Assembly: GCA_038874135.1 (NCBI GenBank)
Contig: JAVZCZ010000001.1
Span: forward strand, 608,001-672,000
DNA from: Candidatus Woesearchaeota archaeon
Lineage (GTDB): Archaea > Nanobdellota > Nanobdellia > Woesearchaeales > 0-14-0-80-44-23
Length of the DNA: 64,000 bases
Reading direction: 5' to 3'
Each line of letters begins with the position of its first letter. The first letter of the stretch is position 1. Positions 120 through 48,044 of the stretch are shown piece after piece. Made by a program: the position numbers and the translations under genes. Under the pieces are notes generated by a model, which was not told the DNA's origin, ran no database searches, and saw only the letters and a program-made list of their open reading frames with translations.

Positions 120-2801
120 ATGAAGCCGCAAAATCTCTCATCTCAAAAATCTCTTGAGGAGACCATATCACGAGAAGAGGAAAAAAATCTTAGGAGAAAA
201 CACTCTTTCGCACAGAAGATAAAAGCTGCTATAATGACTACAGCAACAGCAGCAGGAATACTCTCAGGCGTATTAAGCTTTAAACCCGGCAAAGCAAACG
301 CTTCTCAGATTCTATTAGGAGAAGATACTCCTAAAGTTGAGGCACCAATGCAAACATGGTACCTACTTAACTACCAACCTTTAGAAGCAATAATACGCGA
401 AGTGTACAGAAAAGACATAAAGCTCTGGATTGGAAAGACAGAGGCAACAATAGATGAACAGAACTATACACTAGATGCCGCACCGTACATAAAAAATTCA
501 AGAACGATGGTTCCACTCCGCTTTATCAGTGAGGGACTAGGCGCAACCGTAAGCTGGGATGGAACGCAGAAGAAGGTTACAATTCAGGAAGCTGACAACA
601 CTATAGAACTCTGGATTGGAAAAACAACAGCTCTAGTTAATGGAACAAGCTACACCTTAGATGCAGCCCCAGAAATAAAGAATTCAAGAACATTCGTGCC
701 GATAAGATTTGTCTCAGAAAATCTCAACGCAAATGTGAGCTGGAACTCAGCAACTAAAGAAGTTGGCATATACAGAGAAAAAGTGAGTGAGCATATAAAC
801 ATGAACTCTGATGCAGACAAAGATGGGCTCACATTCGCGCAGGAGCAGAAGCTCGGAACAAACCCTAACAACAAGAACACGATTTATAATACTCTGACAG
901 ACAAGCAGCTGTATGATCTAGTTTCAAAATATCCAGCCCTTAACATCTTCGCAAAGAATCCTGACGGAAAGACAAGGCTCACACTTCCAGACAAGGTTAA
1001 GTACGACCTTGACCCGCTGAACCCTTTCAATCTGGATGATATCCTAAACGATGAGCTTGCAATAAGGTACGCTGCAGCCAACAACAGCGCAGATGGCAAA
1101 GCCGCAGTCCTGCAAGCAGTTCAGTCAATACTGCAGAAATACGGACAAAAGCTCGGCACAGCAGCCAAGCAGGCAACTGCAGCATCCACAATTAGCCCAG
1201 AGGAGCTAGATGCCCAGGCAAACACTGCCAAGCAGCAGGTTGAAAGTTCATTCCAGAACAGGGCGTACAATTTCAGGAGTGATGGAAGCGCAATTACGAT
1301 TGAAGACCTCACCAGCACAGACAGGTATAGGACTCTCATATCTCTGAACAAGCTCTTCGCACCTGAAGACATAAACATACTACTCTCAGAAAGCCCAACG
1401 CTCCAAAAAGGCAACTTAAGCCAATACTCACAGCTCATAAACTCACTAATAGAATGCTCAAACGCGCAGGAGCAGTTCCTAAACGAGAAGGTGAAAGATA
1501 CAAACACATTCAAGCAGAACATAAACCAGCTCTCATTATATGACAACAACACTGCAGAACTGATAATAAGGCTTTGGAATGAAAATGAATCTCTCAGAGG
1601 CTTCATAGCCAGCCATCCAAAGACAACACTGGCAGTAGCATCAGCATTCTCAAACACAATCTTAGAACAGGGCAGAATAAACTATGATGGGAAAGAATAC
1701 GACCTTAACAGCCCCGAGGCGTTTGAAAGGATAAAAGGCATACTCTCAGGACTATTTAACTACTTTGCCAAGACTGAGGAGACATTCAAGAGTCAAAAGC
1801 TCGGCTTTGCACAGTCAATCTACCACAATTCAGGAATAGAGAGCTACACCCTGATTGAGCTTCAAGGATTAGCCCCCATAACAGCAGCGGACATATGCGA
1901 CGGCGTATTCGCATCCACATTAAAAGACCAGGGCGTATCAGCTGCAATCTCCATGTTTGATGTAAACGAGCTTCTTCCCAAGCTTTACGAAGTAGCAATG
2001 AAGAACTATCACATGCGCGTGGCAAGCTACGGGTCTGGAAAGGTGCTCCTAGACTGGCTCAACCCAGAAATAGGACCAGCCTCAATAAGAATAAAGCTCA
2101 CGCCATTCTACATGTCAACAAGGCCGGACATAATTGAGGGAGGAATAGTCTTTAAGAGCGACGAAAAGAAGAATCCGGAGCAGGTGAAGGATGTAGCAGT
2201 GAAGGCGCTGAGCATAATGGACAAGTTCTCCTTCACCACTGATGAGAGGATCAAAGCCAGAGAGATTGAAATGGTAGGAGTTGAAAAGCTCATCAACATA
2301 GCCCTTCTTAGGCCTGTAATCGAGAACCTCTACGCAGTTGATCTTAAGAACAACACAGCCAAGAGCGGAACTGGAAGCGCAATTGACAGGATGGATGCTG
2401 AGAGTGAGAAGCTCGCCCGCCAGATCGGGGGAGCAACTATCTTCAACCTGGAAAAACTCAGAAGCTCGCTGCCGGCAGGAAGATACTCTGATGCAAACGT
2501 TATAGCTATACTGCTCTATACTGAGATGCAGCCTAAAGACCTAAGCACGTACGAAAAGAATCCCATACTACTGCCCTGCAGGATTGGACCCGGCTGGATA
2601 ATCAGGCCCGAGCTCGTTGCCCCTGTAACCTTGAATGATTCAGACAGGCTCTACTTCGGGATTGAATCAATTGATAAGAAGATTGAGGGGTCTTCACTAG
2701 TTCAGTCTTTCGGCTCATACTCAGCCGAGTCAAATGAGGAGTTTGACAGAAAGCTGAGCGTGGCTAAGAGCTTTATCCCATATCCTGGGGTGAAGATGTA
2801 A
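120..2801 (+). CDS. Large exported protein with copper-amine-oxidase N-terminal-like (stalk) repeats, a DxDxDG Ca-binding motif and an unknown C-terminal region
   Basis: Signal peptide ending KANA; two repeats of LWIGK...TLDAAPxIKNSRTxVPxRFxSExLxAxVSW; DADKDGLT..EQKLGTNP motif; TTTATATA box about 25 nt upstream. Confidence 0.8.
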   Translation: MKPQNLSSQKSLEETISREEEKNLRRKHSFAQKIKAAIMTTATAAGILSGVLSFKPGKANASQILLGEDTPKVEAPMQTWYLLNYQPLEAIIREVYRKDIKLWIGKTEATIDEQNYTLDAAPYIKNSRTMVPLRFISEGLGATVSWDGTQKKVTIQEADNTIELWIGKTTALVNGTSYTLDAAPEIKNSRTFVPIRFVSENLNANVSWNSATKEVGIYREKVSEHINMNSDADKDGLTFAQEQKLGTNPNNKNTIYNTLTDKQLYDLVSKYPALNIFAKNPDGKTRLTLPDKVKYDLDPLNPFNLDDILNDELAIRYAAANNSADGKAAVLQAVQSILQKYGQKLGTAAKQATAASTISPEELDAQANTAKQQVESSFQNRAYNFRSDGSAITIEDLTSTDRYRTLISLNKLFAPEDINILLSESPTLQKGNLSQYSQLINSLIECSNAQEQFLNEKVKDTNTFKQNINQLSLYDNNTAELIIRLWNENESLRGFIASHPKTTLAVASAFSNTILEQGRINYDGKEYDLNSPEAFERIKGILSGLFNYFAKTEETFKSQKLGFAQSIYHNSGIESYTLIELQGLAPITAADICDGVFASTLKDQGVSAAISMFDVNELLPKLYEVAMKNYHMRVASYGSGKVLLDWLNPEIGPASIRIKLTPFYMSTRPDIIEGGIVFKSDEKKNPEQVKDVAVKALSIMDKFSFTTDERIKAREIEMVGVEKLINIALLRPVIENLYAVDLKNNTAKSGTGSAIDRMDAESEKLARQIGGATIFNLEKLRSSLPAGRYSDANVIAILLYTEMQPKDLSTYEKNPILLPCRIGPGWIIRPELVAPVTLNDSDRLYFGIESIDKKIEGSSLVQSFGSYSAESNEEFDRKLSVAKSFIPYPGVKM

Positions 2802-2814
2802 GTTTTTATGTTCA

Positions 2815-4350
2815 TTAACCAAGATCACAGGATGTGGTCGAATTAGGCCCGACTTTAAAACATTCATCATTACAACAAATTCCTGCACAACAGCTCCCCC
2901 CACACAGCACTTCACCCTTTTTACATTGTGTTGGGGGCATTGGCGGCTCATCCGGGGGAATTTCTTGATTAGTATTAACTTTTTGGCAGTTGCCGTTTTC
3001 GTCGCATTCGCAATCTACAGTGATGCCGTTTTCAATATATTTTGCTCTGAAGCCCTTTTTGAATGAGATTCTAGTGGTTTCGTTGCAGCAGGAGGGGTTA
3101 TAGGAAAACTTCTTGCTGCCAATTTTGAATAGAACATTTGAATCCGGAAGATATACTCCTATGTATTCATGATTTCTCGTTTCTAATTCTGGTGTTTGAG
3201 AAGAATATTCGCACATCACTCTTATTCTTATGCCTTCCTGCCAGTCCTTTAAGTCCTGAGGGTCTATTGCTGTAACATTTAACATGTGTACTCCAATATC
3301 GCCAGTACTGGCGTTGAAGCTATTCACCTTTCTCTTGTGAAAAATCCATTTTATGTTATTGCTGCTGTCCAGTGTCATGTTGTAAATGTCTACTGTGATG
3401 TTCAGCTGGTCTTCGTCAGGGTCAACTGCGTATCTTGTAAAGTCTATCTCGTCAGAGATGTTAAATTCAAGAGGGCTTGGAATGTTTTTTAGCACGGGAT
3501 TTCTGTTTTCTCTCAGGATTCTGAAGGTGTGTCCCGTTTTGTTGTCCCTCACCTCTATTGTGTCAAATTCTATTCCCCTTTTTATTACGAAGCCTCCGTA
3601 AGGGTAGAGCAGGTTGTAAGTAGGCTTGTTCAGCACATCCTCAAAAGCCATGAAGTCAAGCTTGAGGTCATTCAGGACAAACCTCAAAGCACTCTGATAC
3701 TCCCTGCCAATTCTGACTGGCGAGATGTACTTGTACTCGCTCTTTTTCAGCTTCACAGCAGTCTTGTTAACCTGTACTGAGAGTGGCAGGTAGAGCTCAA
3801 ATATTGTGTCCGAATCTCCAATTGTTACTTTCATGTCAGATGCTTCTGCACTGACCTTTAATCCGTACTTTTCATAATTTTGAAGGTCTATACACTCTTT
3901 TGTCCTATAAAGTGCGTATTCAGCCAGCATTTCCGCAATGCTTGGACTTAATTCCGAACTTGAGTCGAGCTTCGGGATTTGCAGCTTCCCAATCATGCTT
4001 TCAGATCTCGGATATGCTGGCGGCTGGTCTTCAGTGTTTCTAAGCATCCAGAAAACTTCTGAGCCATCATGCCTTCTAATTTTTGACTCATCTGCTACGC
4101 CGCCCTGCTCTTTGAATATGAATCCTCCCTGTGCTCCGGCAATTCGCAGAGCTTCTTCTGCTCCTATCTTAAGACAGGACTCAACATTTGCTTGTATGTT
4201 CAGCATCTGGTTTTCAATTGCGCTTTTTTGAATAGCATTCTGCCTCATCATGTTTATTGCGTTCTGCTGGCTGAATATTATTAGGATCGTGAAAGTGCCC
4301 ACTACTATTAATCCGAGTATGAGAAATATTGCCATCTGAGCCCTGGTCAT
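2815..4350 (-). CDS. Large pilin-like surface protein with class III signal peptide, Ig-like domain and Cys-rich C-terminus
   Basis: N-terminus RAQ/MAIFLILGLIVV; NRNPVL..DPDEDQL Ig/cadherin-like motif; Pro linker then CKKGEVLCGGSCCAGICCNDEC. Confidence 0.7.
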   Translation of the reverse strand: MTRAQMAIFLILGLIVVGTFTILIIFSQQNAINMMRQNAIQKSAIENQMLNIQANVESCLKIGAEEALRIAGAQGGFIFKEQGGVADESKIRRHDGSEVFWMLRNTEDQPPAYPRSESMIGKLQIPKLDSSSELSPSIAEMLAEYALYRTKECIDLQNYEKYGLKVSAEASDMKVTIGDSDTIFELYLPLSVQVNKTAVKLKKSEYKYISPVRIGREYQSALRFVLNDLKLDFMAFEDVLNKPTYNLLYPYGGFVIKRGIEFDTIEVRDNKTGHTFRILRENRNPVLKNIPSPLEFNISDEIDFTRYAVDPDEDQLNITVDIYNMTLDSSNNIKWIFHKRKVNSFNASTGDIGVHMLNVTAIDPQDLKDWQEGIRIRVMCEYSSQTPELETRNHEYIGVYLPDSNVLFKIGSKKFSYNPSCCNETTRISFKKGFRAKYIENGITVDCECDENGNCQKVNTNQEIPPDEPPMPPTQCKKGEVLCGGSCCAGICCNDECFKVGPNSTTSCDLG

Positions 4351-4481
4351 CCTCTTTTTCCCAGCTGTTCTCTATCTAAATTACTATTAAAATCTTTTCA
4401 TTTTATGGCATTGGACATTAGACATATGTACGCGCAGCCTATTTAAGCATTCTAACGCATTATTTTTATGAGGTGATAGGA

Positions 4482-4592
4482 ATGGTTGATCTTTCGCACG
4501 AGACGATAAGCAGGCTATTCTTTGAGCAGATCAGAAACTTAAGCGTTGGGCTGAAGGAGCCTAGGGCATTATGCCGTAGTAGAGTAGTGTGA
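4482..4592 (+). CDS. Putative 36-aa small protein or truncated gene remnant (MVDLSHETISRLFFEQIRNLSVGLKEPRALCRSRVV)
   Basis: Strong SD GAGGTGA 5 nt before ATG 4482; TTTAAG TATA-like element at 4442; overlaps the 3' end of the opposite-strand gene. Confidence 0.35.
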   Translation: MVDLSHETISRLFFEQIRNLSVGLKEPRALCRSRVV

Positions 4593-5148
4593 ATCTCTCC
4601 GCCGCCTTTATTGTTTCATTTCCACTTCCCCTTAAATATACGCAGTTGCCCCTTAAAAATACAGAAGCATTTCCAAAGCTCTCAATCTGTATTATGGGAG
4701 ATGAATTATCCACGCTGCAGTTTGTTACAGTGTAATTTTTGCACGCGGCATTGTCCTGTCTTGAGCACGCAACTTCAGGGGTTCTTCCAAAGTAGGTTAG
4801 CAGGTTTGTTTCCAGATCGAAGATTGTCACAAAGATGTACGGCATTTCTGATTTATCTGCCAGAGGGTCAAAAACTAGATAAACCCCGTTTCCCGTCAAG
4901 AACCTTTTGTCAACAGATCCTGAGACGCTCACATTTTCAAGCTCGGATGGGAGGTAGTGGAATGGAACCCTGTAAAGGTATTTTCCAACCTGCACTTGAG
5001 TATACCATAAGGGACCTTCTCTTTCAAATACGAAGCCGTTGTAGGTGTATGGCTGATTCATTTCCCTGAAGGGCTTCCAAACAAGGACTGCTAAGACTGC
5101 AGCTATTACAACTATGCTTATAACTATTAAGATATTTTGTATTTTCAT
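4561..5148 (-). CDS. Membrane-anchored hypothetical protein (paralog of 5145..5738)
   Basis: N-terminal TM, YNGFxF...W...F(H/Y)..P motif, C..PII..CVYL motif shared with its neighbour. Confidence 0.75.
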   Translation of the reverse strand: MKIQNILIVISIVVIAAVLAVLVWKPFREMNQPYTYNGFVFEREGPLWYTQVQVGKYLYRVPFHYLPSELENVSVSGSVDKRFLTGNGVYLVFDPLADKSEMPYIFVTIFDLETNLLTYFGRTPEVACSRQDNAACKNYTVTNCSVDNSSPIIQIESFGNASVFLRGNCVYLRGSGNETIKAAERFTLLYYGIMP

Positions 5149-5738
5149 TTCTGTGCACCTTCAGTAAGCTTTGCAATCCTGAACTCTATGAGGTCTCTGA
5201 GTGCGAGAATGTCTTGTGTGCTGCCAGCTTTGAATTCCAGGCAGTCTGCGCTTCCTGAGATTTCAAACTTTTGCGATTCTGATATTACAATCATCGGAGT
5301 TGAGGAGCAGTTTAGGATTGGGAGTGAATACTTTTCGTCATAGCTAGTGATTCCCCTTTGCAGGGTGATTCCCCTCTGCATTAGAAATGTGGTTAGGTCT
5401 AAGCTTACTGCATCCAGTGCAGTTAGGAACTGCTGTGAAGAGTTGGGGTTGAAGGAGAGGTATAACCTCCGCTGATCTGTAATGCTCTTTAAGCTTTCAT
5501 TAGGAATGTTGAGTGAGAGGAACTCTTCAGGTGAAGTATAAAATGTGATTCTGAAGCTGGCAGTTTTTGCACTCCAAACCCCGTTGGAATTGTAGAATCT
5601 AACCCCCTCATAACTTTTTATTGAGGATAGGTAATCTGCTATGAAGTATGCAACGGTTCCGAACAGCATTACTGATGTTATGGCTAAGGAGAGTATCCTT
5701 TTCCTCTTTTCCAAGTTGTCTTTTTCTCGTTTTTTCAT
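5145..5738 (-). CDS. Membrane-anchored hypothetical protein (paralog of 4561..5148)
   Basis: N-terminal TM, YEGVRF...W...FYTSP, NC...PMIVI...CLEF; 4-nt overlap coupling. Confidence 0.75.
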   Translation of the reverse strand: MKKREKDNLEKRKRILSLAITSVMLFGTVAYFIADYLSSIKSYEGVRFYNSNGVWSAKTASFRITFYTSPEEFLSLNIPNESLKSITDQRRLYLSFNPNSSQQFLTALDAVSLDLTTFLMQRGITLQRGITSYDEKYSLPILNCSSTPMIVISESQKFEISGSADCLEFKAGSTQDILALRDLIEFRIAKLTEGAQK

Positions 5739-7192: not shown

Positions 7193-7193
7193 G

Positions 7194-18380: not shown

Positions 18381-18635
18381 CTATTTTCTTATCTTGCAGC
18401 AAATCTTGTCAGCACCGCAGCTCTGTGTTCCTGAAGGAATTTCTATGCTTCCATCAGTAATTTTGCAATTATCAGCAGCTGTACAAGTTCCGCCTAAGTC
18501 TTGGCAGTTGCTTGTTCCCCTTGCAAATATGCTTAGCTTCCCAGTGAAGATTGCAAACAACACTACTAAAACTACGAGCGCTATTATTGCTATTATTATC
18601 ACATTCACGGATAGTTCTACTCCTCTCCTCTTCAT
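18381..18635 (-). CDS. Small type IV pilin-like protein with 6-Cys C-terminal domain
   Basis: KRRG/VELSVNVIIIAIIALVVL class III signal; C-x6-C-x5-C-x15-C-x5-CC. Confidence 0.8.
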   Translation of the reverse strand: MKRRGVELSVNVIIIAIIALVVLVVLFAIFTGKLSIFARGTSNCQDLGGTCTAADNCKITDGSIEIPSGTQSCGADKICCKIRK

Positions 18636-21359: not shown

Positions 21360-22301
21360 TTAACAGCTCTTCTTTACAACTATCGGCTGTATCTTATATG
21401 AGAGGTAGTCATATGTTAGTGTTATGGTTACATCCTTCTGATAATCCACCCTTCCCTGCCCAGTTGGAACTTTTTGTATGCAATTAACTATTGCCTTTCC
21501 AGCTCCCTTGTCACTGCTAAGCGTTATGAATCCTGAAGTGTCCGAGCCATCCCTTAAACCAGTGCATCTCAGCCCAGGTATGCCGCTCTCAATTGTGAAT
21601 AACACCCTATTCCTATTGGCAAAAGTGTCTAAACATCCGGAATCCTGCTTAAAGACATTGCCGTTCCCCTTATGCTCTACAGTTATTTCAAACCTCACCT
21701 GATCTGTACCGGCTACGCTCTCAACAAAAGAGGTAACCTGTATTGGAGCACCGGAATTGGCCACCTGCTTTGCCCCATCTATAGTGCAGGCACCCTTGCT
21801 TGTGTCCCTGAGGTTGCTTTTTATGCACGCCTGCGCGATTGCTGTTGTCTTATAGTTGTAACATATTTCAGCTCTTAGTGTTGGATATTTTATGTCGCCC
21901 AGCACGTTTCCTCTGTAAGCAAGATTTGGAAATTCCACCTGAACTGGGATGGACGGCTGATTAACCTTTTTTCCTATTAAATCTTCAGGGGGGTGCTTAC
22001 TGAATTCAGCTGGCGAATATCCAAACTGTTCTGGCATTATGCCCGTTATTGTAACTAGAGCCTTATCTTTAGGAACGTCGTACTCTCCATCATTATTGAG
22101 TTCAACTATTATATCAAACTGGTTAGTACTACCAGCGCAGGAGTCAAACACCTCTGCAGGCGGCGACTCAGGAGCAAAGTTAATCAGCACCCCGTTTGTT
22201 CCTCCCGCAAAGGTTCTTGTTGTTGAACTGGTGTTCTCAGTGCATCCTAAAGACATTAGGATTCCTAAAATTAAGATTCCAAAGAGTATTTCTCTCTTCA
22301 T
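21360..22301 (-). CDS. Predicted lipoprotein, Cys-containing beta-sandwich family (paralog 3)
   Basis: Lipobox-like MSLGC; GV.I.F....PP, CYNYKT.A...C, GAPIQV, LTYDY. Confidence 0.75.
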   Translation of the reverse strand: MKREILFGILILGILMSLGCTENTSSTTRTFAGGTNGVLINFAPESPPAEVFDSCAGSTNQFDIIVELNNDGEYDVPKDKALVTITGIMPEQFGYSPAEFSKHPPEDLIGKKVNQPSIPVQVEFPNLAYRGNVLGDIKYPTLRAEICYNYKTTAIAQACIKSNLRDTSKGACTIDGAKQVANSGAPIQVTSFVESVAGTDQVRFEITVEHKGNGNVFKQDSGCLDTFANRNRVLFTIESGIPGLRCTGLRDGSDTSGFITLSSDKGAGKAIVNCIQKVPTGQGRVDYQKDVTITLTYDYLSYKIQPIVVKKSC

Positions 22302-22310
22302 TTTTAACCC

Positions 22311-23216
22311 TCACAATCTTATTAGCTTGACATTTTTAACAGTTGAATATTTATAGCCATATTCCAGTGTAAGCTGGACGTTTGTAGTGTAAGCGCTCTG
22401 AGAGCTGCTCAGCCCAGAAACCTTGCATACAACTATGCCCTCCCCATTCACCAGTCTTACATCGCTCGGAGTGCAACTCATCTGACGGTCTGATAGGCTT
22501 CCAGACACCTTAACAAGGTTCTGCTTGCTCAGGTCAGCAGACATGCAGGTTCCAGTGCTGTCAGAAGATATTACTTCGCCTCCTCCAACATTCTTTATTG
22601 TAAAAGTGAATATTACATTTCCAACTCCTGATTCCTGCTGTATTGAAGTTACAGAAACTGGACCACCCTGACCTCCTGACATTGAAATTGACCTAGCAGG
22701 CTTGCACGCCTTTGTGCCCGGCTTAGACGGGTTTGGGTCTATGCACACTGTTGTTCCTGCAATTGTCTTATACTTGTAGCAGGCAGTTGCCATAAGGGGG
22801 ATTTCTATAAAGTCAACTCCAGAGGGCATTCTAAATTCAAAGTTTCCCACCTCTACATACTCTAAAGAGCCTGAAGGATTTTTGGATTCTTCTTTACCTT
22901 CCAGCCTTTTAACGCTTACTGTGCTTGGCAGTGGCAATATGTTTGGATCGTAACCGCTAAGGTATATTGTTGCTCCATCGCAGCTTTCCGCCCCCAAGTT
23001 TCTTACTTCAATGCTTACTGCCACTCTATTGTCACCCCCTTGGCTGTAGTGTAAACTCTCAGGTGGGCTGCTCTCTGCGAAGTTTATTTCAACTCCTTTT
23101 GTTCCAGTGCGATAGTTAGTAGTGCTCTTGCTTGAAGGGCCGCACCCATAAGCCAGAATCAAGAGAAATAGCGTTGCAAAGATTGCTGAATTTTTTAAAA
23201 CCTTGTTTGCTCTCAT
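22311..23216 (-). CDS. Predicted lipoprotein, same family (paralog 2)
   Basis: LAYGC; GVEINF...PP, ACYKYKT.A...C, GGPVSV, LEYGY. Confidence 0.75.
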   Translation of the reverse strand: MRANKVLKNSAIFATLFLLILAYGCGPSSKSTTNYRTGTKGVEINFAESSPPESLHYSQGGDNRVAVSIEVRNLGAESCDGATIYLSGYDPNILPLPSTVSVKRLEGKEESKNPSGSLEYVEVGNFEFRMPSGVDFIEIPLMATACYKYKTIAGTTVCIDPNPSKPGTKACKPARSISMSGGQGGPVSVTSIQQESGVGNVIFTFTIKNVGGGEVISSDSTGTCMSADLSKQNLVKVSGSLSDRQMSCTPSDVRLVNGEGIVVCKVSGLSSSQSAYTTNVQLTLEYGYKYSTVKNVKLIRL

Positions 23217-23270
23217 TTTTCTTCACTCTCCAATAGCGTTTAATTATATAAAGTTTTCTTTAATCTTTTC

Positions 23271-24212
23271 CTATCCTGGCAGTTTTTTAATTATCACTTC
23301 TTTAGTTGCAATCTGTACATAGCCGTAGCTAACATTTATTAACAACGGGCTTACATAGGAGCCGTCGCTAACCTTTAAGATTCCAGTTTCGCAGGTTACA
23401 ATGTCTTCAGAATTCTGCGAGAGGTCTGCATAGTTTCGCTTTCCGCAGTTCAACTCTTTATCCCCAAGCTTGGCGCTGACATATGCCCTTCCAAAGTATG
23501 CTGAAGGAGCGCCCGTCACCTTGGTGTTAGAGCATAAGACTTCCCACTTTCCTTTATCTACTACAATTCCATCCCCTACATTTCTTATCTTTATTGTGAA
23601 TACCATTTTTACTTCGCTCTCGCTTTGAAATAATTTTGCGGCGTCTATCTCGCTAATTACAATCGGCGCTCCCTGACTGGAGAGTGTTGTTTTCTCTCTG
23701 AATGTGCACGGCTTTCTTCCACCTTCATATATCGAGGTATCAACACAGAAGGAGGTTGTAGCAATTGTGTAATAAGGGTAACATGCAGTTGCAGTTATTT
23801 CAGTGTTTATTTCGTTGAGGCCCAACTCTTCAGGAGCGCTTAGCATAAATATTTTAAAACTTCTTCCACCAATAAATGTTCTAGTGTCTTCCCTGCCGGG
23901 AATTTTAAATCTAAAAAAGTCATCATTTTTTATCATCTTTTCTGTCGGAAATTCAGGAGCATTTATTATGAGCACTCCATCTAAGGCAACAGCACCCGCG
24001 TTTTCCAACATTATACCTACTGGGAATTCCGTGCCTGCATATACAATGTCTGGAGGTGAATTTTTCATGAATGAAATTCTCAAAGCTTCTGTCCCGCTAT
24101 GGGCATTGAATGGTAAGGCTCCAGGCGAGTAGGTGCATCCCGAAATTATAACTAACAATATCACGATCGGAGTAGCCGTCTTAATGATTTTAAGCTCTGC
24201 AGCCCTAAACAT
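23271..24212 (-). CDS. Predicted lipoprotein, same family (paralog 1)
   Basis: IISGC; L.ISF...PP, ACYPYYT.A...C, GAPIVI, VSYGY. Confidence 0.75.
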   Translation of the reverse strand: MFRAAELKIIKTATPIVILLVIISGCTYSPGALPFNAHSGTEALRISFMKNSPPDIVYAGTEFPVGIMLENAGAVALDGVLIINAPEFPTEKMIKNDDFFRFKIPGREDTRTFIGGRSFKIFMLSAPEELGLNEINTEITATACYPYYTIATTSFCVDTSIYEGGRKPCTFREKTTLSSQGAPIVISEIDAAKLFQSESEVKMVFTIKIRNVGDGIVVDKGKWEVLCSNTKVTGAPSAYFGRAYVSAKLGDKELNCGKRNYADLSQNSEDIVTCETGILKVSDGSYVSPLLINVSYGYVQIATKEVIIKKLPG

Positions 24213-26153
24213 TTATTGCACCCCGCAGAAGTAACTGTTCCAATAGTACATGTAGTTTATTACAGGGATATAATAATTCTCATCCGCGGCATTTTTATTG
24301 TTGTAAGTTTTTATTGCACACCTGAGCTTTTCCTGCGTTTCAGCATTCACATATTCCTTACAATAGCTATCGTCAGTAACATAACTCTTTATCCTCTCGG
24401 CAGCACATACTATGTCAGCCACAACATCATAGGCCGGAGCACAGCACTTACATCCTGCAATGTGATAAGGTATCCCTTCAGCATTTAATACATCCCGATT
24501 TGTTCCCAAGCTTGATTCCTTAATCATCATTGCCAGCAGCAACGCCCTGGTTTGCTGTTCATCCAACCAATCTGGCTTATACCTTGTTATTGCCTTGTCC
24601 AGCCCCTCTTTTATCAGGTCTGAGAGGGGTCCGCTGTTGTAAATCTTAACATAATACTTCATATACTCAGGCAGGGACTCCGCCTTGTTTGTACAGTCAA
24701 AGCTGGACTCAATCTTTGGACCAGTGTAAATTCCTAACCCGCCAAAATCCTCAGTGCTTCCACTTTCGTCATTTTCCAAAACATTCAGTTCGTATGTGGA
24801 AGAGAGCCTGTACGAGTAGGATGCACTCACCACTATGAACCCCCTCATGTATCCCGTGCTTCCCAAATTGATATTGTTCTCTGCTTTCAAACCGCACACA
24901 AAGCTTCTAACAGTTGTTATATTATAATCCGGAGGGATTATATCCTTATCCAGCACATAGGTCTGTCCCGAGCCCGTGAAAGGGCAGGATTCCTTATTTG
25001 GAATAAGTGTTAGTCCTAAAGGTAGCTGAACTTTTATGTTGCTTACGCCAATTGCATCTCCAGAAAAGGCACCCCACTGGTTGGTCAAGGCGAAAACAAG
25101 CTCTGCGCTATTTCCCTCAGGTCCGTTAATTGTCATCGGAGTTGGATTAACTTTTATGCCGATGTTGATTGGGCCGTCATTAAACACTGCTTTCTTTTCG
25201 GGGTCAATCTTGTAATATTTTAGTAAGAAGTCCCTGCCATACTGCTGCATGAGGGCATTTCTCCTGCTGTAATCCATCAAGTGTACTGGCAGGTAGGATG
25301 TAGTGTTAAATGGGAATACAATTGAGAATTTCAGCTTGTTTATTCCTGAACTCGTTTTTATTGTTTCTAGGGTGCAGCTTATCGTCCTCTTGTTGCTGCT
25401 TATATCAGGAAAAGGTATCTGCTCCGGGGTAGGCTTTCCAGTGATCCTGCCATTTGAGCAGTTTGTAATCACTGTTATGTCAGGGTATATTCTAAGGTTT
25501 TCTCCTTCTACATCAGCATATACCTCAACAGAGTCTCCAACATAGTAATCCTTGTCAGGCAGCAGCAGCTGGGGTTTGGATATTGAAATTCCTATCAGGT
25601 CTTGAGCCTCCCCTGTTGGGCAGTTTCCAGATGCGCACTGAATCTGCGTATCCACATAGTTTTTGACCTGATTGTTGAATCTCTGCAGCGACTCGCTTAT
25701 GCTTCCGAAGGTTTTTGCAGCAGTTCCTTCTTTTTTATTCTCAGCACTATACACCTTTACCAGGGGCCAGAACATCATTAGGCCCCACACGACTAGCAGG
25801 AGAATAACCATGCTTAGGAAGTATTTGCTCCTGATTAGAGCTGGCAGTATCAACACTCCTACTCCTATGAGTATGGTCCACACTAGGGGGATTCCTGCAA
25901 TGTAAGCAGCAATTGCACCTCCCAGTGCAGCTAAAATTTCTAAGGAAGTATATGTCGGGTTTTCGGAGAACTTGGACATTGAATTGCGATAGGCATCTGC
26001 CAGCTTCTGGCCTCCAGCCTTAAAGGCTCCCTTTATTCCTCTACCAATATTAGAAAAAACCTCTGCTGCTTTTTTCGCAGCAGCATTACTCTCAATTCCG
26101 CTTTTTCTATCATCAATTCTCGGGATTCGTCCCGCTATCGCTTCATCCACCAT
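24213..26153 (-). CDS. Multi-TM membrane protein with a lipoprotein-family-like beta domain and a C-terminal lysozyme/transglycosylase-like domain
   Basis: Three TM segments; DGPINIG and ASYSY motifs; C-terminal ALLLAMMIKESS...DIVCAAERIK...CAIKTYN...NYYIPVI; likely start ATG 26153. Confidence 0.7.
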   Translation of the reverse strand: MVDEAIAGRIPRIDDRKSGIESNAAAKKAAEVFSNIGRGIKGAFKAGGQKLADAYRNSMSKFSENPTYTSLEILAALGGAIAAYIAGIPLVWTILIGVGVLILPALIRSKYFLSMVILLLVVWGLMMFWPLVKVYSAENKKEGTAAKTFGSISESLQRFNNQVKNYVDTQIQCASGNCPTGEAQDLIGISISKPQLLLPDKDYYVGDSVEVYADVEGENLRIYPDITVITNCSNGRITGKPTPEQIPFPDISSNKRTISCTLETIKTSSGINKLKFSIVFPFNTTSYLPVHLMDYSRRNALMQQYGRDFLLKYYKIDPEKKAVFNDGPINIGIKVNPTPMTINGPEGNSAELVFALTNQWGAFSGDAIGVSNIKVQLPLGLTLIPNKESCPFTGSGQTYVLDKDIIPPDYNITTVRSFVCGLKAENNINLGSTGYMRGFIVVSASYSYRLSSTYELNVLENDESGSTEDFGGLGIYTGPKIESSFDCTNKAESLPEYMKYYVKIYNSGPLSDLIKEGLDKAITRYKPDWLDEQQTRALLLAMMIKESSLGTNRDVLNAEGIPYHIAGCKCCAPAYDVVADIVCAAERIKSYVTDDSYCKEYVNAETQEKLRCAIKTYNNKNAADENYYIPVINYMYYWNSYFCGVQ

Positions 26154-26175
26154 CCTCTTTTGCTCCAAACTCCTT

Positions 26176-27384
26176 TTAAGGCAGGTAATATTCAACTTTT
26201 AATTCTGATATGTAAATTGTATTTATAGGTTCTATTTTTATCGCGTTGTTGCCTTCAAGAATTTCTGATGAGGAGAAGTTTATAGAATACTCAACATTTT
26301 TAGTGCTAACCCTCTTGAGAATGTTGTTCAGGCGTATGTTGAACACCTTTTCGGAATTGTCAGGGAAGCGCATGTACATTCTTACTCCGAGAGTTCCGCT
26401 TTTTATTTTTGAATAGTCGCTCTGACTGATATCAAAATAGTAAATCGGGTAGGATATCTCTTTGAATTGGGGAACTATCCTTATCTGTTCTATAGAATAG
26501 AGCCCGCTATCTGTTGAGAATGTTATCCTGTTTTGGCCCTGCTTGAAGTATTCTGGCGAGGCTTCTATGCTATAGGGTGAGCCGCATTCGGGCACGAATG
26601 CTGCAACCTCGTTCTGATTTATTGTGATTGTAAGCTTTCCGCGGTTGGAAGAAGCGCAGTCCGCATAAAACTTCAGATTATACTTTTCTGCGTATGCAAT
26701 TTCAAAATCTGAGATTTCGAAGGAAGCTGTTGCTTTCTGGTATGAAAGGTCAGTTATGTATCCGGTTATCTTTATGTCCAGTAAGTTGTAGTTGTTTTCC
26801 CTCCAGATTGCAAGCCCGGGACTTGAAACTGAAAATTCCAAAGTGTTTGTGCCTTCAACAAGATTATCCTTTGGAAGTTGAATCGGGTTTGGATTGTACG
26901 AAGTTATTTCGCTGTTGAATATCTCCTCTCCATTAAGCTTTATTATGAGCCTTCCGGAGTGGGAGCTAGCTGCAAAAGAGAGCATCAGATTATCTACAGC
27001 TTCTAAGTTTTTAACTTCAAAAGTCACCTGTTTAGAAATCGCTCCGAATATGTTGTTCTTTATATAGAAGGGGTTTATCGTCTTTATCACAGCCGCATTT
27101 CTTGTAACCTTTACAACTAAGTCGTTAACCGAGTGGCCATCTGAATATTTGTCATACATTGAAGAGGCATCAAGCCTTCCAGGCTTTTCATCCAGCAGAA
27201 CCTTATTGGCTGAACTGTCCTGAGAGCTTGAGTTAGTAGCGTTTTCAGTTAGAAGTTCCTGTCTGGTTTCAGGGGGTAAGAAGAGGATGTAAATTATTAT
27301 TAAAAGTCCAATGAGTCCAACAAGAACTCCTGCGCTGGTTGCAGTCTGGGCCTTCCTATTTTTTTTAAGGGGTTGAGCGAGCAT
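26176..27384 (-). CDS. Class III signal peptide surface protein with repeated beta-sandwich (jelly-roll-like) domains
   Basis: KKNRKAQ/TATSAGVLVGLIGLLIIIYILF; three L.I.(L/I)N...G.N.(L/I) repeats. Confidence 0.72.
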   Translation of the reverse strand: MLAQPLKKNRKAQTATSAGVLVGLIGLLIIIYILFLPPETRQELLTENATNSSSQDSSANKVLLDEKPGRLDASSMYDKYSDGHSVNDLVVKVTRNAAVIKTINPFYIKNNIFGAISKQVTFEVKNLEAVDNLMLSFAASSHSGRLIIKLNGEEIFNSEITSYNPNPIQLPKDNLVEGTNTLEFSVSSPGLAIWRENNYNLLDIKITGYITDLSYQKATASFEISDFEIAYAEKYNLKFYADCASSNRGKLTITINQNEVAAFVPECGSPYSIEASPEYFKQGQNRITFSTDSGLYSIEQIRIVPQFKEISYPIYYFDISQSDYSKIKSGTLGVRMYMRFPDNSEKVFNIRLNNILKRVSTKNVEYSINFSSSEILEGNNAIKIEPINTIYISELKVEYYLP

Positions 27385-29721: not shown

Positions 29722-30689
29722 TATTCTTCACCAGCCTGAACAGCCGTTATAGCAGCTACCTCAACTATGTCTTGAACGCTGCACCCCCTGGAAAGGTCAT
29801 TCACAGGCCTGGCAAGTCCCACAATTATGGGACCGACTGCCCTTGCCCCTCCAAATCTTTCCACAAGCTTATACCCTATGTTTCCAGCGTTAAGGTCTGG
29901 AAAGATTAGAACGTTAGCCCTTCCCCTAATCTTTGAGCCAGGCGCCTTCCTCTTAGCAACCTCTGGAACTATTGCAGCGTCCACCTGAAGTTCTCCCTCA
30001 ACTAGCAGGTTAGGCATCTTTTCAGAAGCTATCCTCACGGCATTTTTTACCTTCTCAACAAGCGGGTGGCTGGCGCTTCCGAGTGTTGAGAATGAAAGCA
30101 TCGCAATCCTCGGCTTAATGCCCAACTGAATTGCAAATTCTGCAGCATTTTTAGATATCTCTGCCAGCTGGTTCTCATCAGGATTAGGATTTACTCCGCA
30201 GTCTGAGAATATGAAGTTGCCCATCTTGTGGATCATGAGAAAACATCCGCTGGCAATTGAAACGCCAGGCTTCGTCTTTATTATCTGAAACGCAGGCCTC
30301 AGCGTGTGTTCAGTTGGGTGGGCAGCTCCAGATACTATGCCATCTATTCTTCCATCTTTTAGGAGCATCGCTGCTAGGTACATCTTGTCATTCAACAAGG
30401 TTTTTGCTTCTGAAATTGTAAGCCCCTTTTCCTTTCTAATGTCGTAAAGTCGCGCTGCCATCTCTTCATAATCTAAACTTTTCGTGTCTATTATCTCAAC
30501 TTTTCCGACAATACTTCCTGGTAACTTCTTCTCTATACTGCTCCTTTCCCCAAGTAGAACTGGAATTGCTATCCGCTTTTTGGCTATTATCGCAACTGCT
30601 TTTAGGATTCTATCATCTTCATCTTCAGGAAATAGTATCCTCTTTCCGAGCCTTCTTGCTCTGCTTTCAATTCTTGCGAGAATGTCCAT
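29721..30689 (-). CDS. pta: Phosphate acetyltransferase
   Basis: DCGVNPNP, MLSFSTLGS, GELQVDAA, FPDLNAGNIGYK, VNDLSRGC; SD GGAGG before ATG 30689. Confidence 0.97.
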   Translation of the reverse strand: MDILARIESRARRLGKRILFPEDEDDRILKAVAIIAKKRIAIPVLLGERSSIEKKLPGSIVGKVEIIDTKSLDYEEMAARLYDIRKEKGLTISEAKTLLNDKMYLAAMLLKDGRIDGIVSGAAHPTEHTLRPAFQIIKTKPGVSIASGCFLMIHKMGNFIFSDCGVNPNPDENQLAEISKNAAEFAIQLGIKPRIAMLSFSTLGSASHPLVEKVKNAVRIASEKMPNLLVEGELQVDAAIVPEVAKRKAPGSKIRGRANVLIFPDLNAGNIGYKLVERFGGARAVGPIIVGLARPVNDLSRGCSVQDIVEVAAITAVQAGEE

Positions 30690-30858
30690 AATGCGCCTCC
30701 TTTCAGGTTGATATTCTTCTGTTTGCATTTAAATTTTTTCCGATTTACAAATTTTAACCCACTAATTTAAAATAAACAAAAAGCTTTATAAATCGCTCAG
30801 ATTCCCCAAAGTGGATAAGAGCATAACAAAACAAAATTGCCCATTTGAGGTGTTACTA

Positions 30859-44352: not shown

Positions 44353-44411
44353 GGGCTATCTTTTGAAGTTTTTTATTATTTTTTCAAGCCCTGTTGTAGA
44401 GGGATGAAAAA
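44353..44411 (+). promoter_or_regulatory. thrS 5' leader with tRNA-Thr anticodon-like hairpin occluding the SD and start codon
   Basis: TTTTTCA-AG-CCCT-[GT TGT AG]-AGGG-A-TGAAAAA; TATA box TTTATATA at 44322. Confidence 0.6.
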
Positions 44412-46315
44412 TGGTCGTAGTAAACATGGGAAATTCTAAGCACGTATTTAAAAGCGGAATTACCTGTAGTGAGATTGCAGGCTCTCTAAATATTAAAGAC
44501 GCAGTTGCTGCTAAGGTTGATGGAGAGCAGGTTGACCTGTCATACCGCGTGGATAAGGATTGCACTCTTGAGTTCATAAAGCTGTCCTCTTCAGATGGGC
44601 TAACAATCCTTAGGCATACAGCAGCGCACATACTCGCACAAGCAGTTCTGAGATTATTTCCCAAAGCTCTTCTGACAATAGGGCCAGCTGTGGAAGATGG
44701 CTTTTATTACGACATAGACCATGAGCCTTTCACCCCGGAAGACATTAAAAGGATTGAAGAGGAGATGCATAGAATAGTCAAAGAAAACCTTCCAATCATA
44801 AGGGAAGAGATTTCAAAAGAAGAAGCATTGAAGCTTTTCAGCAAAAATCCTTACAAGATTGAGATGATAAATGAGCTTCCAGGCGGCATTGTTTCAATTT
44901 ATAGGCAGGGGGAATTCTTTGACCTGTGCAGGGGCCCACACCTTCCGTATACCTCTCTTGTGAAGGCGTTTAAGCTTACTAAGATTGCAGGCGCATACTG
45001 GCGCGCAGACGCTAAAAACAAGCAGTTGCAGAGAATATACGGCATCGCATTTCCGGAAGAAAAGCAGTTAAAATATTACATTACCATGATGGAAGAGGCA
45101 GAGCAGAGGGACCATAGGAAGATAGGAAGAGAGATGGACCTGTTCAGCTTTCACGAAGAGGGCCCGGGATTTCCTTTCTTTCACCCAAAGGGCGTAATAA
45201 TTCTAAATGAGCTCGTTCAGTTCTGGAGGGAAGAGCATTCCAAGGCAGGCTATCAGGAGATAAAGACGCCGATAATTCTTTCAAAGACACTCTGGGAGCG
45301 CAGCGGTCATTGGGAGCACTACCGCAATAACATGTACTTCACTAAGATTGATGAGAAGGACTTTGCTGTAAAACCGATGAACTGCCCAGGAGGCATTTTA
45401 GTATACAAATCCTCCCCTAAGAGTTATAGGGATCTTCCTCTCAAACTTTCTGAGCTCGGATTAGTGCACAGGCACGAGCTTTCAGGAGTGCTCTCGGGAC
45501 TATTCAGGGTGAGGTGCTTCACTCAGGACGATGCGCACATCTATGTTACAGAGGACCAGATAGAGGAGGAGGTAGTGAATGTTGTCAGACTGGTAGACAA
45601 GTTTTACAAGAAGTTCGGATTTGAATACCATGTAGAACTATCCACCAGGCCTGAGGATTATATGGGCGAACTTGAACTTTGGAATAGAGCAGAGTCAAGC
45701 CTTAAGCACGCTTTAGAATCCTTAGGAATGAAATATAAGATTAATGAGGGAGACGGAGCATTTTATGGACCTAAGATAGACTTTCACATAAAGGACTGCA
45801 TAGGCAGGACATGGCAGTGCGGCACTGTTCAGCTGGACTTTCAGATGCCCATAAAATTTGACCTGGAGTATGACGGGCAGGATGGAAAGAAGCACAGGCC
45901 AGTGATGATTCACAGGGTTGTTTATGGAAGTCTTGAGAGGTTCTTAGGCATTCTTATTGAGCACTACGCTGGAAGGTTCCCGCTTTGGCTGGCTCCAGTT
46001 CAGGTCAGAATTCTTACGGTTGCGGACAGGCATAATGAGTATGCTTCTCAGATAGAAAACATGCTCTCATCTAAGAAGCTGAGGGTTGAACTGGATTCGA
46101 AGGCTCAGACCATCGCCTATAAGGTGAGAGACGCTCAGCTGCAGAGAATTCCAGTGATACTCACAGTGGGTGATAAGGAAGTAAGCTCCAGAACAGTTGC
46201 ACTTAGGACTCTGGACGGAAGGGTTAAGTTTAATGTTGATCCAGCTAAGCTGACTGAAATCCTCATAAGGAATGTTGAGGAGCGCTCTAACTCTTTAGAG
46301 CTTGATGGAATTTAA
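44411..46315 (+). CDS. thrS: Threonyl-tRNA synthetase, bacterial type
   Basis: TGS domain, editing motifs HTAAH and DLCRGPH, KPMNCP, FTQDDAH, GAFYGPKID. Confidence 0.97.
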   Translation: MVVVNMGNSKHVFKSGITCSEIAGSLNIKDAVAAKVDGEQVDLSYRVDKDCTLEFIKLSSSDGLTILRHTAAHILAQAVLRLFPKALLTIGPAVEDGFYYDIDHEPFTPEDIKRIEEEMHRIVKENLPIIREEISKEEALKLFSKNPYKIEMINELPGGIVSIYRQGEFFDLCRGPHLPYTSLVKAFKLTKIAGAYWRADAKNKQLQRIYGIAFPEEKQLKYYITMMEEAEQRDHRKIGREMDLFSFHEEGPGFPFFHPKGVIILNELVQFWREEHSKAGYQEIKTPIILSKTLWERSGHWEHYRNNMYFTKIDEKDFAVKPMNCPGGILVYKSSPKSYRDLPLKLSELGLVHRHELSGVLSGLFRVRCFTQDDAHIYVTEDQIEEEVVNVVRLVDKFYKKFGFEYHVELSTRPEDYMGELELWNRAESSLKHALESLGMKYKINEGDGAFYGPKIDFHIKDCIGRTWQCGTVQLDFQMPIKFDLEYDGQDGKKHRPVMIHRVVYGSLERFLGILIEHYAGRFPLWLAPVQVRILTVADRHNEYASQIENMLSSKKLRVELDSKAQTIAYKVRDAQLQRIPVILTVGDKEVSSRTVALRTLDGRVKFNVDPAKLTEILIRNVEERSNSLELDGI

Positions 46316-47344
46316 TCATTCAAGAACGCCTTCCCGTTTTTTTATCTCTTTTATTAACTCTTCTCTTTTGAAGTCTTCTCCCAGTTTCTTTCTTATCTCA
46401 AATTCAACTCTATAAGCATTGTAGTTTTTCATGATCTTATCTACATAATTTATGATTTCTTTTGCCTTATCCTTCGGGTATGAATAATATTCTGAACAGG
46501 CTTTTTCTATGTATGGAACTAAGTCTTTCCACTCTTGCTCCCAGTATGCCTTGCCATTATCTCTAGATGCCATTTTTACAGCGTCTCTAACTACGCTTTG
46601 ACCACCGTTGTATGCAGCGAGTACCAGCTTTAAGTGTTCCCATCTTAGTTTGTAGTATCTTGCTGAATCTCTTTCTTTAAGCCATTCGGGCGGCTCGCAG
46701 AATTTAAGGTAGCTCTCCTTCTCATTAAGTATTTTTATTCCAGCCCTTATATTTGAATATGGGTCAAATCTGTTCTTCCAATCTTCTGCACTGACGCTGT
46801 TACGCATTATCTGCATCAGGCCTGAAGCTCCGCATTCAGATATACACCTTTCATTCCAAGTGCTTTCTGATTCTATTATTGCAGCTATGAGGGCAATGTC
46901 TTTCATTTTAGAGAATTCGTTTAGGATGTTCCAATATTTTTCAGGCATGTTTATTCTCTGGTAATTTTTTATGTAGTATGCCATTTCAGCTTCTGGAATT
47001 TTAGAAAGCACTTCTTCAAGAGATTTGTTGTTAGCTCTTGTCTCTTTCAGCTGCATTCTCTGAGCAGTAGCTTCCAAACCTTTCAGCTCCACACCGCAAA
47101 TTCCAGGAGTTTTGCCAATGTTAATCTGGACTACATTTGATGTTTCATAATTTTGTGTTTTATAGCAATCATACTTCTTGTCTTTTGAAATTCCCTTCGC
47201 AATACCCAGAGCCAGCAGTCCAACTCCGATAATTCCTGCTGCTGCTTTAATCAAGTTTTTCTTTCTTTTCCTTTTTTCTTCATAATCCAATCTGCCGGCA
47301 TCAGGGTTATTATACATGAATCGGAGCATCGGGTCTTTTTCCAT
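46316..47344 (-). CDS. Membrane-anchored lytic transglycosylase (SLT domain)
   Basis: LIAAIIESESTWN, S..GASGLMQIM, FDPYSNIRAG, LAAYNGG, E..NYVDKIM; N-terminal signal anchor. Confidence 0.92.
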   Translation of the reverse strand: MEKDPMLRFMYNNPDAGRLDYEEKRKRKKNLIKAAAGIIGVGLLALGIAKGISKDKKYDCYKTQNYETSNVVQINIGKTPGICGVELKGLEATAQRMQLKETRANNKSLEEVLSKIPEAEMAYYIKNYQRINMPEKYWNILNEFSKMKDIALIAAIIESESTWNERCISECGASGLMQIMRNSVSAEDWKNRFDPYSNIRAGIKILNEKESYLKFCEPPEWLKERDSARYYKLRWEHLKLVLAAYNGGQSVVRDAVKMASRDNGKAYWEQEWKDLVPYIEKACSEYYSYPKDKAKEIINYVDKIMKNYNAYRVEFEIRKKLGEDFKREELIKEIKKREGVLE

Positions 47345-47369
47345 ATTTGTTACTAAGTAGTAGTGATAT

Positions 47370-48044
47370 TTAAATCTTTTGTTTTTTCGCGTTATCAAAT
47401 AGTATTTTCATAATAAGAAACAATATGACTTCTTCAATTGCTGTTGCTATCAAAACAAAAAACAGCCCATCCATAAAGAACCTTTCTGGAAAAAAAATTA
47501 GGATTCTGCTCCCTAAAGGAAACTGCCAGTTTCCCATTTTAAAAAATATTGCATGAAAACCAATGAAAGCTGCTGAGAAAACATTCCTAAAACAAACTGA
47601 AAATCCTAAGATAATCACTAGAAAGAAAGTGGCAAAAATCATTTTTCTAAGACATACAAAAAAATTATCCAGCATAGCTGTACTTACTGCTAACATCATA
47701 AGTAAGCCTGCCAAACAGACAATATAAACCTTAAACCCGAATTTAAACAAATTCTTAACATCATTCAGATGAGACGCTTCTTCTACACTAAAAATCCCCT
47801 CGCTGAGGGAAGCCCTTCCAACTAAAAAATCTGGGAATGTGTTAATGAATGATTCTGCGTCTTCCCTTGCAATTCCTACCTGTTCCAGCTCGCCATAAAT
47901 ATTTAGACGGTAGAACTCAAGCCTATACCATGTCTCACTGAAGGCAAGTGCGAAAGTGTTTGAAAGCATTAGAATAAATAGCAGGATTAAAGCCGCTAAG
48001 AAAGAAGATATCCAGCATAGTGCAACCTTGCTAATCTTTACCAT
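47370..48044 (-). CDS. DUF1461/Lit-like integral membrane protein (lipoprotein intramolecular transacylase family)
   Basis: Four TM; E.SHL.DVK.LF and F..FH.IFF...NW.F....L..FPE.FF motifs with both His residues. Confidence 0.75.
   Translation of the reverse strand: MVKISKVALCWISSFLAALILLFILMLSNTFALAFSETWYRLEFYRLNIYGELEQVGIAREDAESFINTFPDFLVGRASLSEGIFSVEEASHLNDVKNLFKFGFKVYIVCLAGLLMMLAVSTAMLDNFFVCLRKMIFATFFLVIILGFSVCFRNVFSAAFIGFHAIFFKMGNWQFPLGSRILIFFPERFFMDGLFFVLIATAIEEVILFLIMKILFDNAKKQKI

Follow-up and report, generated by a model that had tools for sequence, protein, structure and literature searches.

Proteins with SLT domains occur in Woesearchaeota and Pacearchaeota, and bacterial hosts were suggested for these archaea by Castelle et al. 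(2021), who cite Rinke (2013) and Castelle (2015) as earlier notes (PMC8204110). Vigneron et al. (2022) proposed "vampiristic" predatory Woesearchaeota of Lake A on the basis of glycoside hydrolase family 23 (GH23) lytic transglycosylases (PMC9723730), and the point is made again in two works on archaeal peptidoglycan hydrolases, a survey of 2024 and an experimental paper of 2025. The idea of a bacterial host or prey is already published (PMC8204110, PMC9723730, PMC12352652) and is not new here. The subject of this report is a stretch of 64,000 nt (the window; bases 608001-672000 of contig JAVZCZ010000001.1, GCA_038874135.1) from the single-contig genome (909,956 bp) of a Candidatus Woesearchaeota archaeon, together with the putative murein hydrolases and pilin-like proteins encoded in the window and elsewhere in that genome. 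It is judged moderately probable that murein hydrolases are exposed on the outside of this woesearchaeote and act on the peptidoglycan of the bacteria it touches.

The DPANN proteins of Castelle et al. resemble the present case in the SLT domain itself, in the wall-less, small-genome archaea that carry it, and in the attachment to or degradation of bacterial walls suggested for it (PMC8204110). Compared with them, the SLT protein of the window is small (342 aa) and has a plain transmembrane (TM) anchor, and a cryptic GH23-like domain and a scaffold-borne M23 domain are added here. The linkage to pilin arrays comes from this analysis; no mention of it is seen in the available part of Castelle et al. 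(PMC8204110). Vigneron et al. relied on GH23, a TlyC-type pore-forming toxin, and abundance correlations (PMC9723730), whereas the argument here is built on linkage with pilin-like genes. The M23 hydrolases of haloarchaea are likewise bacteria-derived domains in archaea, and M23 homologues in Nanoarchaeia were noted in the same work; the haloarchaeal enzymes are secreted, modular, fitted with PG_binding_1, and active by experiment (PMC12352652), whereas the M23 domain described here is known from genes only, is inserted in a pilin-like scaffold, and has no known wall-binding module. No paper combining Woesearchaeota, pilin, and transglycosylase was found in the literature. What had been a loose list of bacterial-type genes becomes a testable object, namely tethered glycan and peptide cutters, which in relatives form part of pilin-like proteins and have their genes in the company of a conserved mini-pilin gene.

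Bacterial modular type IV pilins, such as PilB and PilC of Streptococcus sanguinis, carry a functional module on a pilin N-terminus for display on the filament. In the present case the cargo would be a murein hydrolase, the organism is an archaeon, the signals are of class III, and filament assembly is predicted from genes. SLT or M23 domains that sit on a fibre or a machine and open peptidoglycan locally are also found in phage tail and tape-measure lysins, EtgA, FlgJ, and VirB1-type proteins. The bacterial machines among these cut their own wall from the inside, whereas the target here, as with phages, would be a foreign wall attacked from the outside.

Putative murein hydrolases and pilin-like proteins

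The features on which the argument depends are as follows; unless marked as genome positions, coordinates are those of the window.

46316..47344, minus strand: membrane-anchored family-1 lytic transglycosylase, 342 aa (PF01464), SLT domain at about 46553-46906
24213..26195, minus strand: 660-aa protein with three TM helices, a β-rich outer region, and a C-terminal cryptic GH23/lysozyme-like domain, by predicted fold
24216-24728, minus strand: the GH23-like domain, formed by the last 170 residues (~490-660) of the 660-aa protein
26176..27384, minus strand: protein of 402 aa with a class-III-like signal (RKAQ, then a hydrophobic helix), first gene of a five-gene operon (21360-27384)
21360..24212, minus strand: three paralogous lipobox lipoproteins (313, 301, and 313 aa; LGC, YGC, and SGC boxes), whose genes lie downstream within that operon
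18381-18635 and 18645-18902, minus strand: two tandem mini-pilins (84 and 85 aa), each with a class-III-like signal and a six-Cys head of β-defensin-like spacing
genome 474653-476585, plus strand, outside the window: M23 domain (E 6e-30) in a 643-aa pilin-like scaffold protein
genome 419878-420327, minus strand, outside the window: VanX/DdpX-type D-Ala-D-Ala dipeptidase (PF01427, E 2e-24)

The SLT protein matches PF01464 at E 3.6e-19 with 68.9 bits (cut-off 21.3). Its best relatives in the PDB are MltF, with which the catalytic E-S (IIESES), GLMQ (GLMQI), and AYNGG (AAYNGG) motifs align, and a phage tape-measure protein is also among the sequence matches. The canonical SLT transglycosylase named in the original prediction is confirmed, all of its catalytic motifs being intact. 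The open reading frame (ORF) spans 46316-47398 on the minus strand and can be read as 360 aa; the database form begins at Met19, giving 342 aa, and the true start is likely at 47344. A single TM helix (residues 48-66 of the 360-aa reading) follows a Lys/Arg-rich N-terminus, so the catalytic domain should face outward and is predicted, by hydropathy only, to lie outside the cytoplasm. The predicted activity is cleavage between N-acetylmuramic acid (MurNAc) and N-acetylglucosamine (GlcNAc) with formation of 1,6-anhydroMurNAc. Order-wide counts refer throughout to 61 genomes of the same order, that is, this genome (G000) and 60 relatives; SLT (PF01464) was found in 41 of them.

The second candidate is cryptic. 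With E-values of up to 5 allowed, the GH23-like domain still matches no Pfam family, and it has no PDB match by phmmer or by profile search. Only seven homologues were found among 1.8 billion representative proteins (two proteins in a word-indexed homologue search), and alignment to the SLT domains of relatives by hhalign gives a probability of 21%, confined to the AYN-type motif region. An AlphaFold model made without an alignment was unusable (pLDDT 41), whereas the model made with the seven homologues reaches a pLDDT of 83.5 and a pTM of 0.85. When compared with known structures by VIA, this model retrieves MltF first (Z 11.5, 134 residues, rmsd 3.2), followed by g-type lysozyme (Z 9.6) and MltC (8.7) and then by SltB1, a GH23 chitinase, MltE, and Slt70; the top 50 are mostly lysozyme-superfamily proteins, with EtgA, FlgJ, and phage tail lysins included. 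Since the VIA threshold for helical models is about 13, a Z of 11.5 is middling on its own, and the family-specific list of matches is the stronger argument. The top Foldseek matches agree with a lysozyme-like fold, although weakly (E ~0.1).

One glutamate is invariant in all seven homologues, in a KESS/QETG (ESS/ETG) context resembling the E-S motif of SLT, and is a candidate catalytic residue. Some homologues keep a YNxGP motif, and HIAGC stands in place of GLMQ. The second lysozyme-like domain proposed earlier (24213..24640) is accepted as a probable lysozyme-like domain at the level of the fold only; it is supported by the predicted fold, to which sequence methods are blind.

The 660-aa protein has 15 Cys residues, and its gene lies in the five-gene surface operon. 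The 402-aa protein encoded first in this operon has a weak match to a carbohydrate-binding module (26.6 bits against a cut-off of 27), and no Pfam family was found for the three lipoproteins. The operon recurs in a relative whose counterpart of the 660-aa protein shows 52-57% identity in the C-terminal domain, and its neighbours there are the same, namely Pta, AckA, aRF1, RFC, one mini-pilin, and Rpr2. In a relative, a gene for 412 aa takes the place of the 402-aa gene, and in relatives three lipoprotein genes (332, 311, and 307 aa) follow in the same order. The five genes are treated here as a putative family-specific surface module.

The peptide cutter is encoded outside the window, between genes for a TldD/PmbA-like peptidase and a tRNA-guanine transglycosylase and away from any pilin array. 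In residues 10-139 this M23 protein shows 34% identity (E 2e-19) to the beginning of an SLT protein encoded in the pilin array of another family, and a later segment is shared as well. A scaffold protein from the array of a third genome matches it at 30% identity along 360 aa, a stretch that takes in the M23 domain. The shared N-terminus and the similarity to the array scaffold suggest that one pilin-like scaffold carries interchangeable murein-hydrolase inserts. M23 is found in 36 of the 61 genomes, SLT and/or M23 in 50 of the 60 relatives, and both matches occur within one ORF (467-1692 aa) in six relatives (G019, G032, G040, G042, G043, and G057).

The arrays themselves are best seen in other families. 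Thirteen loci were examined, a sample selected for the proximity of pilin and SLT matches. Each contains an array of 10-18 genes in one direction, and almost every gene encodes a short basic segment followed by a hydrophobic helix, with mini-pilins included; in most loci the SLT protein is encoded by the last gene of the array, often with a 4-nt overlap with the preceding gene, to which it would be translationally coupled. Of the 50 relatives with a hydrolase gene, 20 have it no more than ~12 kb from a pilin array, against a chance expectation of ~5-12. This count is a lower bound owing to fragmented assemblies, and related genomes are not independent, which makes the operon structure the stronger argument. 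In the present genome, homologues of array genes are spread over at least four places (474.6, 506.7-508.6, 574.9-579.5, and 626.4-626.9 kb). A cluster that is compact in other families looks to have been broken up here, and the parts in the window would look dispersed for that reason.

Both mini-pilins of the window begin with RRGVELS followed by a hydrophobic helix, a pattern kept in 22 aligned homologues. They have the elements of a class-III-like signal, namely a short basic N-terminus, a G/A cleavage-type motif, and a hydrophobic helix of ~20 residues. A search with one of the two found the family in 59 of the 61 genomes, usually in tandem arrays. The six Cys residues are invariant in 22 sequences (consensus CxxxGGxC...C...C...CC) and agree with the defensin framework C-x(4-8)-C-x(3-5)-C-x(9-13)-C-x(4-7)-CC, except that the third spacer frequently exceeds its range and can reach 18 residues. 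A profile of the head searched against the PDB has β-defensin-fold proteins as all of its top 19 matches, with marginal E-values of 9.5e-4 to 0.33; among those named are a tick carboxypeptidase inhibitor, human β-defensins 1, 3, and 106, and platypus defensin-like peptides. In the alignments with the carboxypeptidase inhibitor, human β-defensin 1, and a platypus peptide, all six Cys align. The full-length profile finds horseshoe-crab big defensin best (E 0.003), and Pfam Defensin_beta matches four of the 22 family members (best E 2.5e-4).

The defensin-like pilins of the original prediction are borne out in their six-Cys framework, with PDB profile matches of marginal significance. The likeness stops at charge: the heads are neutral to acidic (net charge -6 to +1, mean -1.7), unlike antimicrobial defensins, and this lack of cationic character makes a role as antimicrobial peptides unlikely. 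Compact, disulfide-stabilized structural heads, probably of the major subunit, are the preferred reading. Trans-defensins are described in the literature as confined to animals, a statement on which the occurrence of a β-defensin-like Cys framework on archaeal pilins bears.

Three co-directional genes at 2815-5738 of the window (minus strand; 511, 195, and 197 aa) encode N-terminal hydrophobic helices and belong to no Pfam family. The 511-aa protein has a class-III-like RAQ motif at its start and a Cys-rich tail (16 Cys), and it may be another pilin-like surface protein. Near one array of another genome (G020, L045:319-5949), an 1877-aa protein with bacterial TSP3 calcium-binding repeats is encoded upstream, separated from the array by a 159-aa ORF and the gene of a Na/H exchanger. 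The latter, a multi-TM gene, had been considered as filament machinery and was rejected.

Proposed action on bacterial walls and its alternatives

It is proposed that the tethered SLT lytic transglycosylase would cut glycan strands, that the divergent GH23-like domain, on a three-TM protein whose gene shares an operon with those of a pilin-like protein and three lipoproteins, would act as a second glycan cutter, and that the M23 endopeptidase in its pilin-like scaffold would cut the peptides. A type-IV-filament-like surface structure may carry or position these hydrolases, such that a foreign wall would be opened locally. The filament could be assembled by the genome's own ATPases, platform proteins, and prepilin peptidase, as the genome encodes matches to PF00437 (assembly ATPase) three times, the platform protein PF00482, and the prepilin peptidase PF01478. 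No Mur ligase was found in the closed genome, which therefore cannot build murein by the standard pathway. Such a system could serve host contact, predation, or feeding.

Judged from the genes, it is credible that the murein-hydrolase and pilin parts together form a surface system, spread throughout the order, whose target is the bacterial wall. To this extent the original prediction of a system directed at bacteria is supported, with SLT, GH23-like, and M23 domains predicted to face outward, an order-wide distribution, linkage to pilins, and no Mur ligase found. Its inclusion of Lit, thrS, pta-ackA, and ppdK is not: together with the lipoproteins, these are the cell's own bacterial-type gene complement and not parts of the tool.

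Several points weigh against action on bacterial walls from a filament. In this genome the SLT gene lies outside any pilin array, and the N-terminus of its product differs from the array scaffold. BLASTP comparison of the proteins of the 660-aa operon with the pilin arrays of 13 genomes of other families gave no match, and the operon is not claimed as the local equivalent of such arrays. Neither SLT nor M23 was seen in 10 of the 60 relatives. No Pfam pilin family matched the mini-pilins or the pilin-like array and scaffold proteins at the thresholds used, and in the two arrays checked no filament machinery genes adjoin the array. Since GH23 also includes chitinases, murein is the likely rather than the certain substrate. 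Type IV filament systems are rare in DPANN according to a 2026 survey (PMC13705601), and all cultivated DPANN have archaeal hosts (PMC11291902).

The same fact about hosts (PMC11291902) favours a different use of the same enzymes, namely antagonism or scavenging, in which they would lyse competitors or digest wall debris while the real host, if any, is archaeal. Archaeal peptidoglycan hydrolases that kill bacteria are documented in haloarchaea (PMC12352652), and the VanX/DdpX-type dipeptidase at genome 419878-420327 could help the cell to use wall peptides. However, the enzymes are membrane- or pilin-tethered rather than freely secreted, and tethering favours action on contact. No AnmK was found in this genome, so that the usual route for the anhydro-muramic acid made by SLT is missing, and nutritional use by way of anhydroMurNAc was rejected on this ground. 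Moreover, the genome has 0.91 Mb and no match to geranylgeranylglyceryl phosphate synthase (GGGPS), PlsY, or Mur ligase, which suggests that the cell depends on a partner. Antagonism or scavenging is a tentative alternative, regarded as unlikely. From the genes described here, a bacterial host cannot be told apart from prey, from competitors, or from the wall remains of dead cells.

The dispersal of the items also invites the explanation that there is no system, that unrelated bacterial-type genes were kept for separate reasons, and that their grouping is an artefact of viewing a single window. Distances of 2-27 kb, filled by housekeeping genes, separate the items in this genome; Lit, thrS, pta-ackA, and ppdK have ordinary cellular roles; the nearest relatives of AckA are scattered across bacteria; and bacterial genes are common in DPANN (PMC8204110). 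For the hydrolases and pilins this explanation is contradicted by other families of the order, in which the two share arrays, a scaffold, and fusion proteins, and it is considered quite unlikely.

Lytic transglycosylases need the C6 hydroxyl of MurNAc for their reaction, a group missing from pseudomurein. This counts against action of the domains on a polymer other than murein, be it chitin-like or other glycans of GlcNAc or the envelope of an archaeal host. The chitinases within GH23, of which the Ralstonia enzyme is among the structural matches, would allow such a substrate, and the second domain is very divergent, with HIAGC for GLMQ and no Pfam match. The SLT domain, on the other hand, keeps every family-1 motif, and in six relatives a glycan cutter and an M23 peptide cutter are joined in single ORFs, the classic pairing for murein. 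The M23-SLT fusion would be hard to explain with a substrate other than peptidoglycan, and a non-murein target is regarded as very unlikely.

The notion that the bacterial-type genes are an assembly or binning artefact can be dismissed as having a negligible chance of being right, as the genome is a closed single contig of 909,956 bp (0.91 Mb, 99.4% complete, 0.24% contaminated), GC content is uniform along the whole window, bacterial-type genes are interleaved with archaeal ones, and the genes recur in 41-59 of the 61 related genomes. The contig is not chimeric, a check that the original prediction had called for, and each item listed in that prediction is present in the window. Its description of the 64 kb as otherwise archaeal also agrees with Pfam scans of ~60 ORFs, which identify an archaeal backbone of RFC small subunit, GatD/GatE, aRF1, SRP54, Cdc6/Orc1, RpoD, S11, aIF5A, HerA/NurA, TrmB, and a non-discriminating AspRS. 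The NCBI names of the closest homologues match the assignment to Woesearchaeota.

Predicted lipoprotein maturation and other bacterial-type genes

The remaining bacterial-type genes are listed below together with a gene for phosphoenolpyruvate synthase, and the stalk-domain surface protein comes last.

47370..48065, minus strand: Lit-like (DUF1461/TIGR01906) membrane protein with five TM helices (PF07314), 25 nt upstream of the SLT gene
genome 534748-535467, minus strand: Lgt, bacterial-type (E 2e-74)
genome 388418-388813, minus strand: LspA, bacterial-type (E 7e-31)
44411..46315, plus strand: threonyl-tRNA synthetase, bacterial-type, with TGS, SAD, core, and anticodon domains; housekeeping
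28537-29721, minus strand: AckA (PF00871, E 6e-137; NCBIfam ackA)
29721-30728, minus strand: Pta (PF01515, E 9e-119; NCBIfam pta)
49274-51700, plus strand: phosphoenolpyruvate synthase (NF005057, 1216 bits)
52914-55580, plus strand: pyruvate, phosphate dikinase PpdK (TIGR01828, 1376 bits); metabolic
120..2801, plus strand: 893-aa surface protein with two Cu_amine_oxidN1 ("stalk") domains (PF07833, E 3e-56)

The Lit-like protein matches PF07314 at E 1e-18 with 68.3 bits (cut-off 24), and its 70.0 bits against TIGR01906 fall just below the cut-off of 74.8. Lit is present in 47 of the 61 genomes, and its adjacency to SLT is seen only in this family (G000, G002, and G003). As in the bacteria that use Lgt, LspA, and Lit (Firmicutes with lyso-form lipoproteins), all three genes and lipobox proteins occur here, and with the lipobox proteins of the window the three enzymes make, on the evidence of their sequences, a complete pathway for maturing the cell's own lipoproteins. 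Because Lit completes this bacterial-type pathway, it is not aimed at bacteria; the Lit-like gene of the original prediction is present (PF07314), and the anti-bacterial role given to it falls away. According to a 2025 paper, archaeal homologues of Lgt or Lsp had not been identified until then (PMC12462473), a statement on which the presence of Lgt in 55 of the 61 genomes, Lit in 47, and LspA in this genome bears.

The setting differs from that of the bacterial pathway in that it is an archaeon for which neither GGGPS nor PlsY was found. The searches of the closed genome covered GGGPS (PF01884) and PlsY (PF02660), both without a match; PlsC, digeranylgeranylglyceryl phosphate synthase, and CdsA/CarS were not searched for. 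The known reaction of Lit, which gives a lyso-form lipoprotein by transfer to the N-terminal Cys, needs an ester-linked acyl chain, and this hints at ester lipids that may be taken up from outside.

A bolder version of the wall-opening proposal would join these elements. In it, the hydrolase scaffolds, pilin-like proteins, and mini-pilins would form one type-IV-filament machine that docks on living bacteria and opens their wall; the heads would be envelope binders with a true β-defensin fold; and Lgt, LspA, and Lit would acylate surface proteins with ester lipids of the bacterial host. This version is doubtful and, on balance, unlikely. If true, it would describe the first β-defensin fold outside animals and the first DPANN group with bacterial hosts.

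Housekeeping and metabolism account for the other bacterial-type genes. The threonyl-tRNA synthetase scores 715 bits against TIGR00418 (cut-off 384) and 198 bits against the archaeal NF003068 (cut-off 484). The pta-ackA pair is a conserved syntenic neighbour of the surface operon and is not part of any envelope tool. The best 80 relatives of AckA, a list by similarity and not a phylogeny, are spread over many bacterial phyla at 40-48% identity, and such scatter, judged by the condition that the original prediction had set for itself, gives no support to acquisition from a partner. The bacterial type assigned earlier to thrS, pta-ackA, and ppdK is upheld, and their assignment to an envelope tool gives way to housekeeping and metabolic roles. 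The accompanying suggestion that genes were acquired from bacterial partners is not supported by AckA, whose relatives reveal neither a donor nor an ecological link.

The one gene with a suggestive origin is that of the stalk-domain protein, whose copper-amine-oxidase-N repeats, reported earlier, are found in two copies. Within the order, it occurs only in this family and in one other genome. Its nearest named non-archaeal homologues belong to Coprothermobacteraceae (57%), Caldisericia (52%), Syntrophomonadaceae, and Clostridia, and the identity of its stalk domains to their counterparts in Coprothermobacteraceae, Caldisericia, and Clostridia-type bacteria is 50-57%. In these bacteria, the domain is attached to many different exoenzymes. 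Binding of bacterial envelopes is a possible role for the archaeal protein.

A group of four genes lies at 55593-59125 of the window (minus strand). The first encodes a GH116/amylo-α-1,6-glucosidase-like glycosidase of 394 aa that lacks a signal peptide; the other three encode small proteins that each have a TM helix at the N-terminus, and weak matches to immunoglobulin-like domains are seen in one of these.

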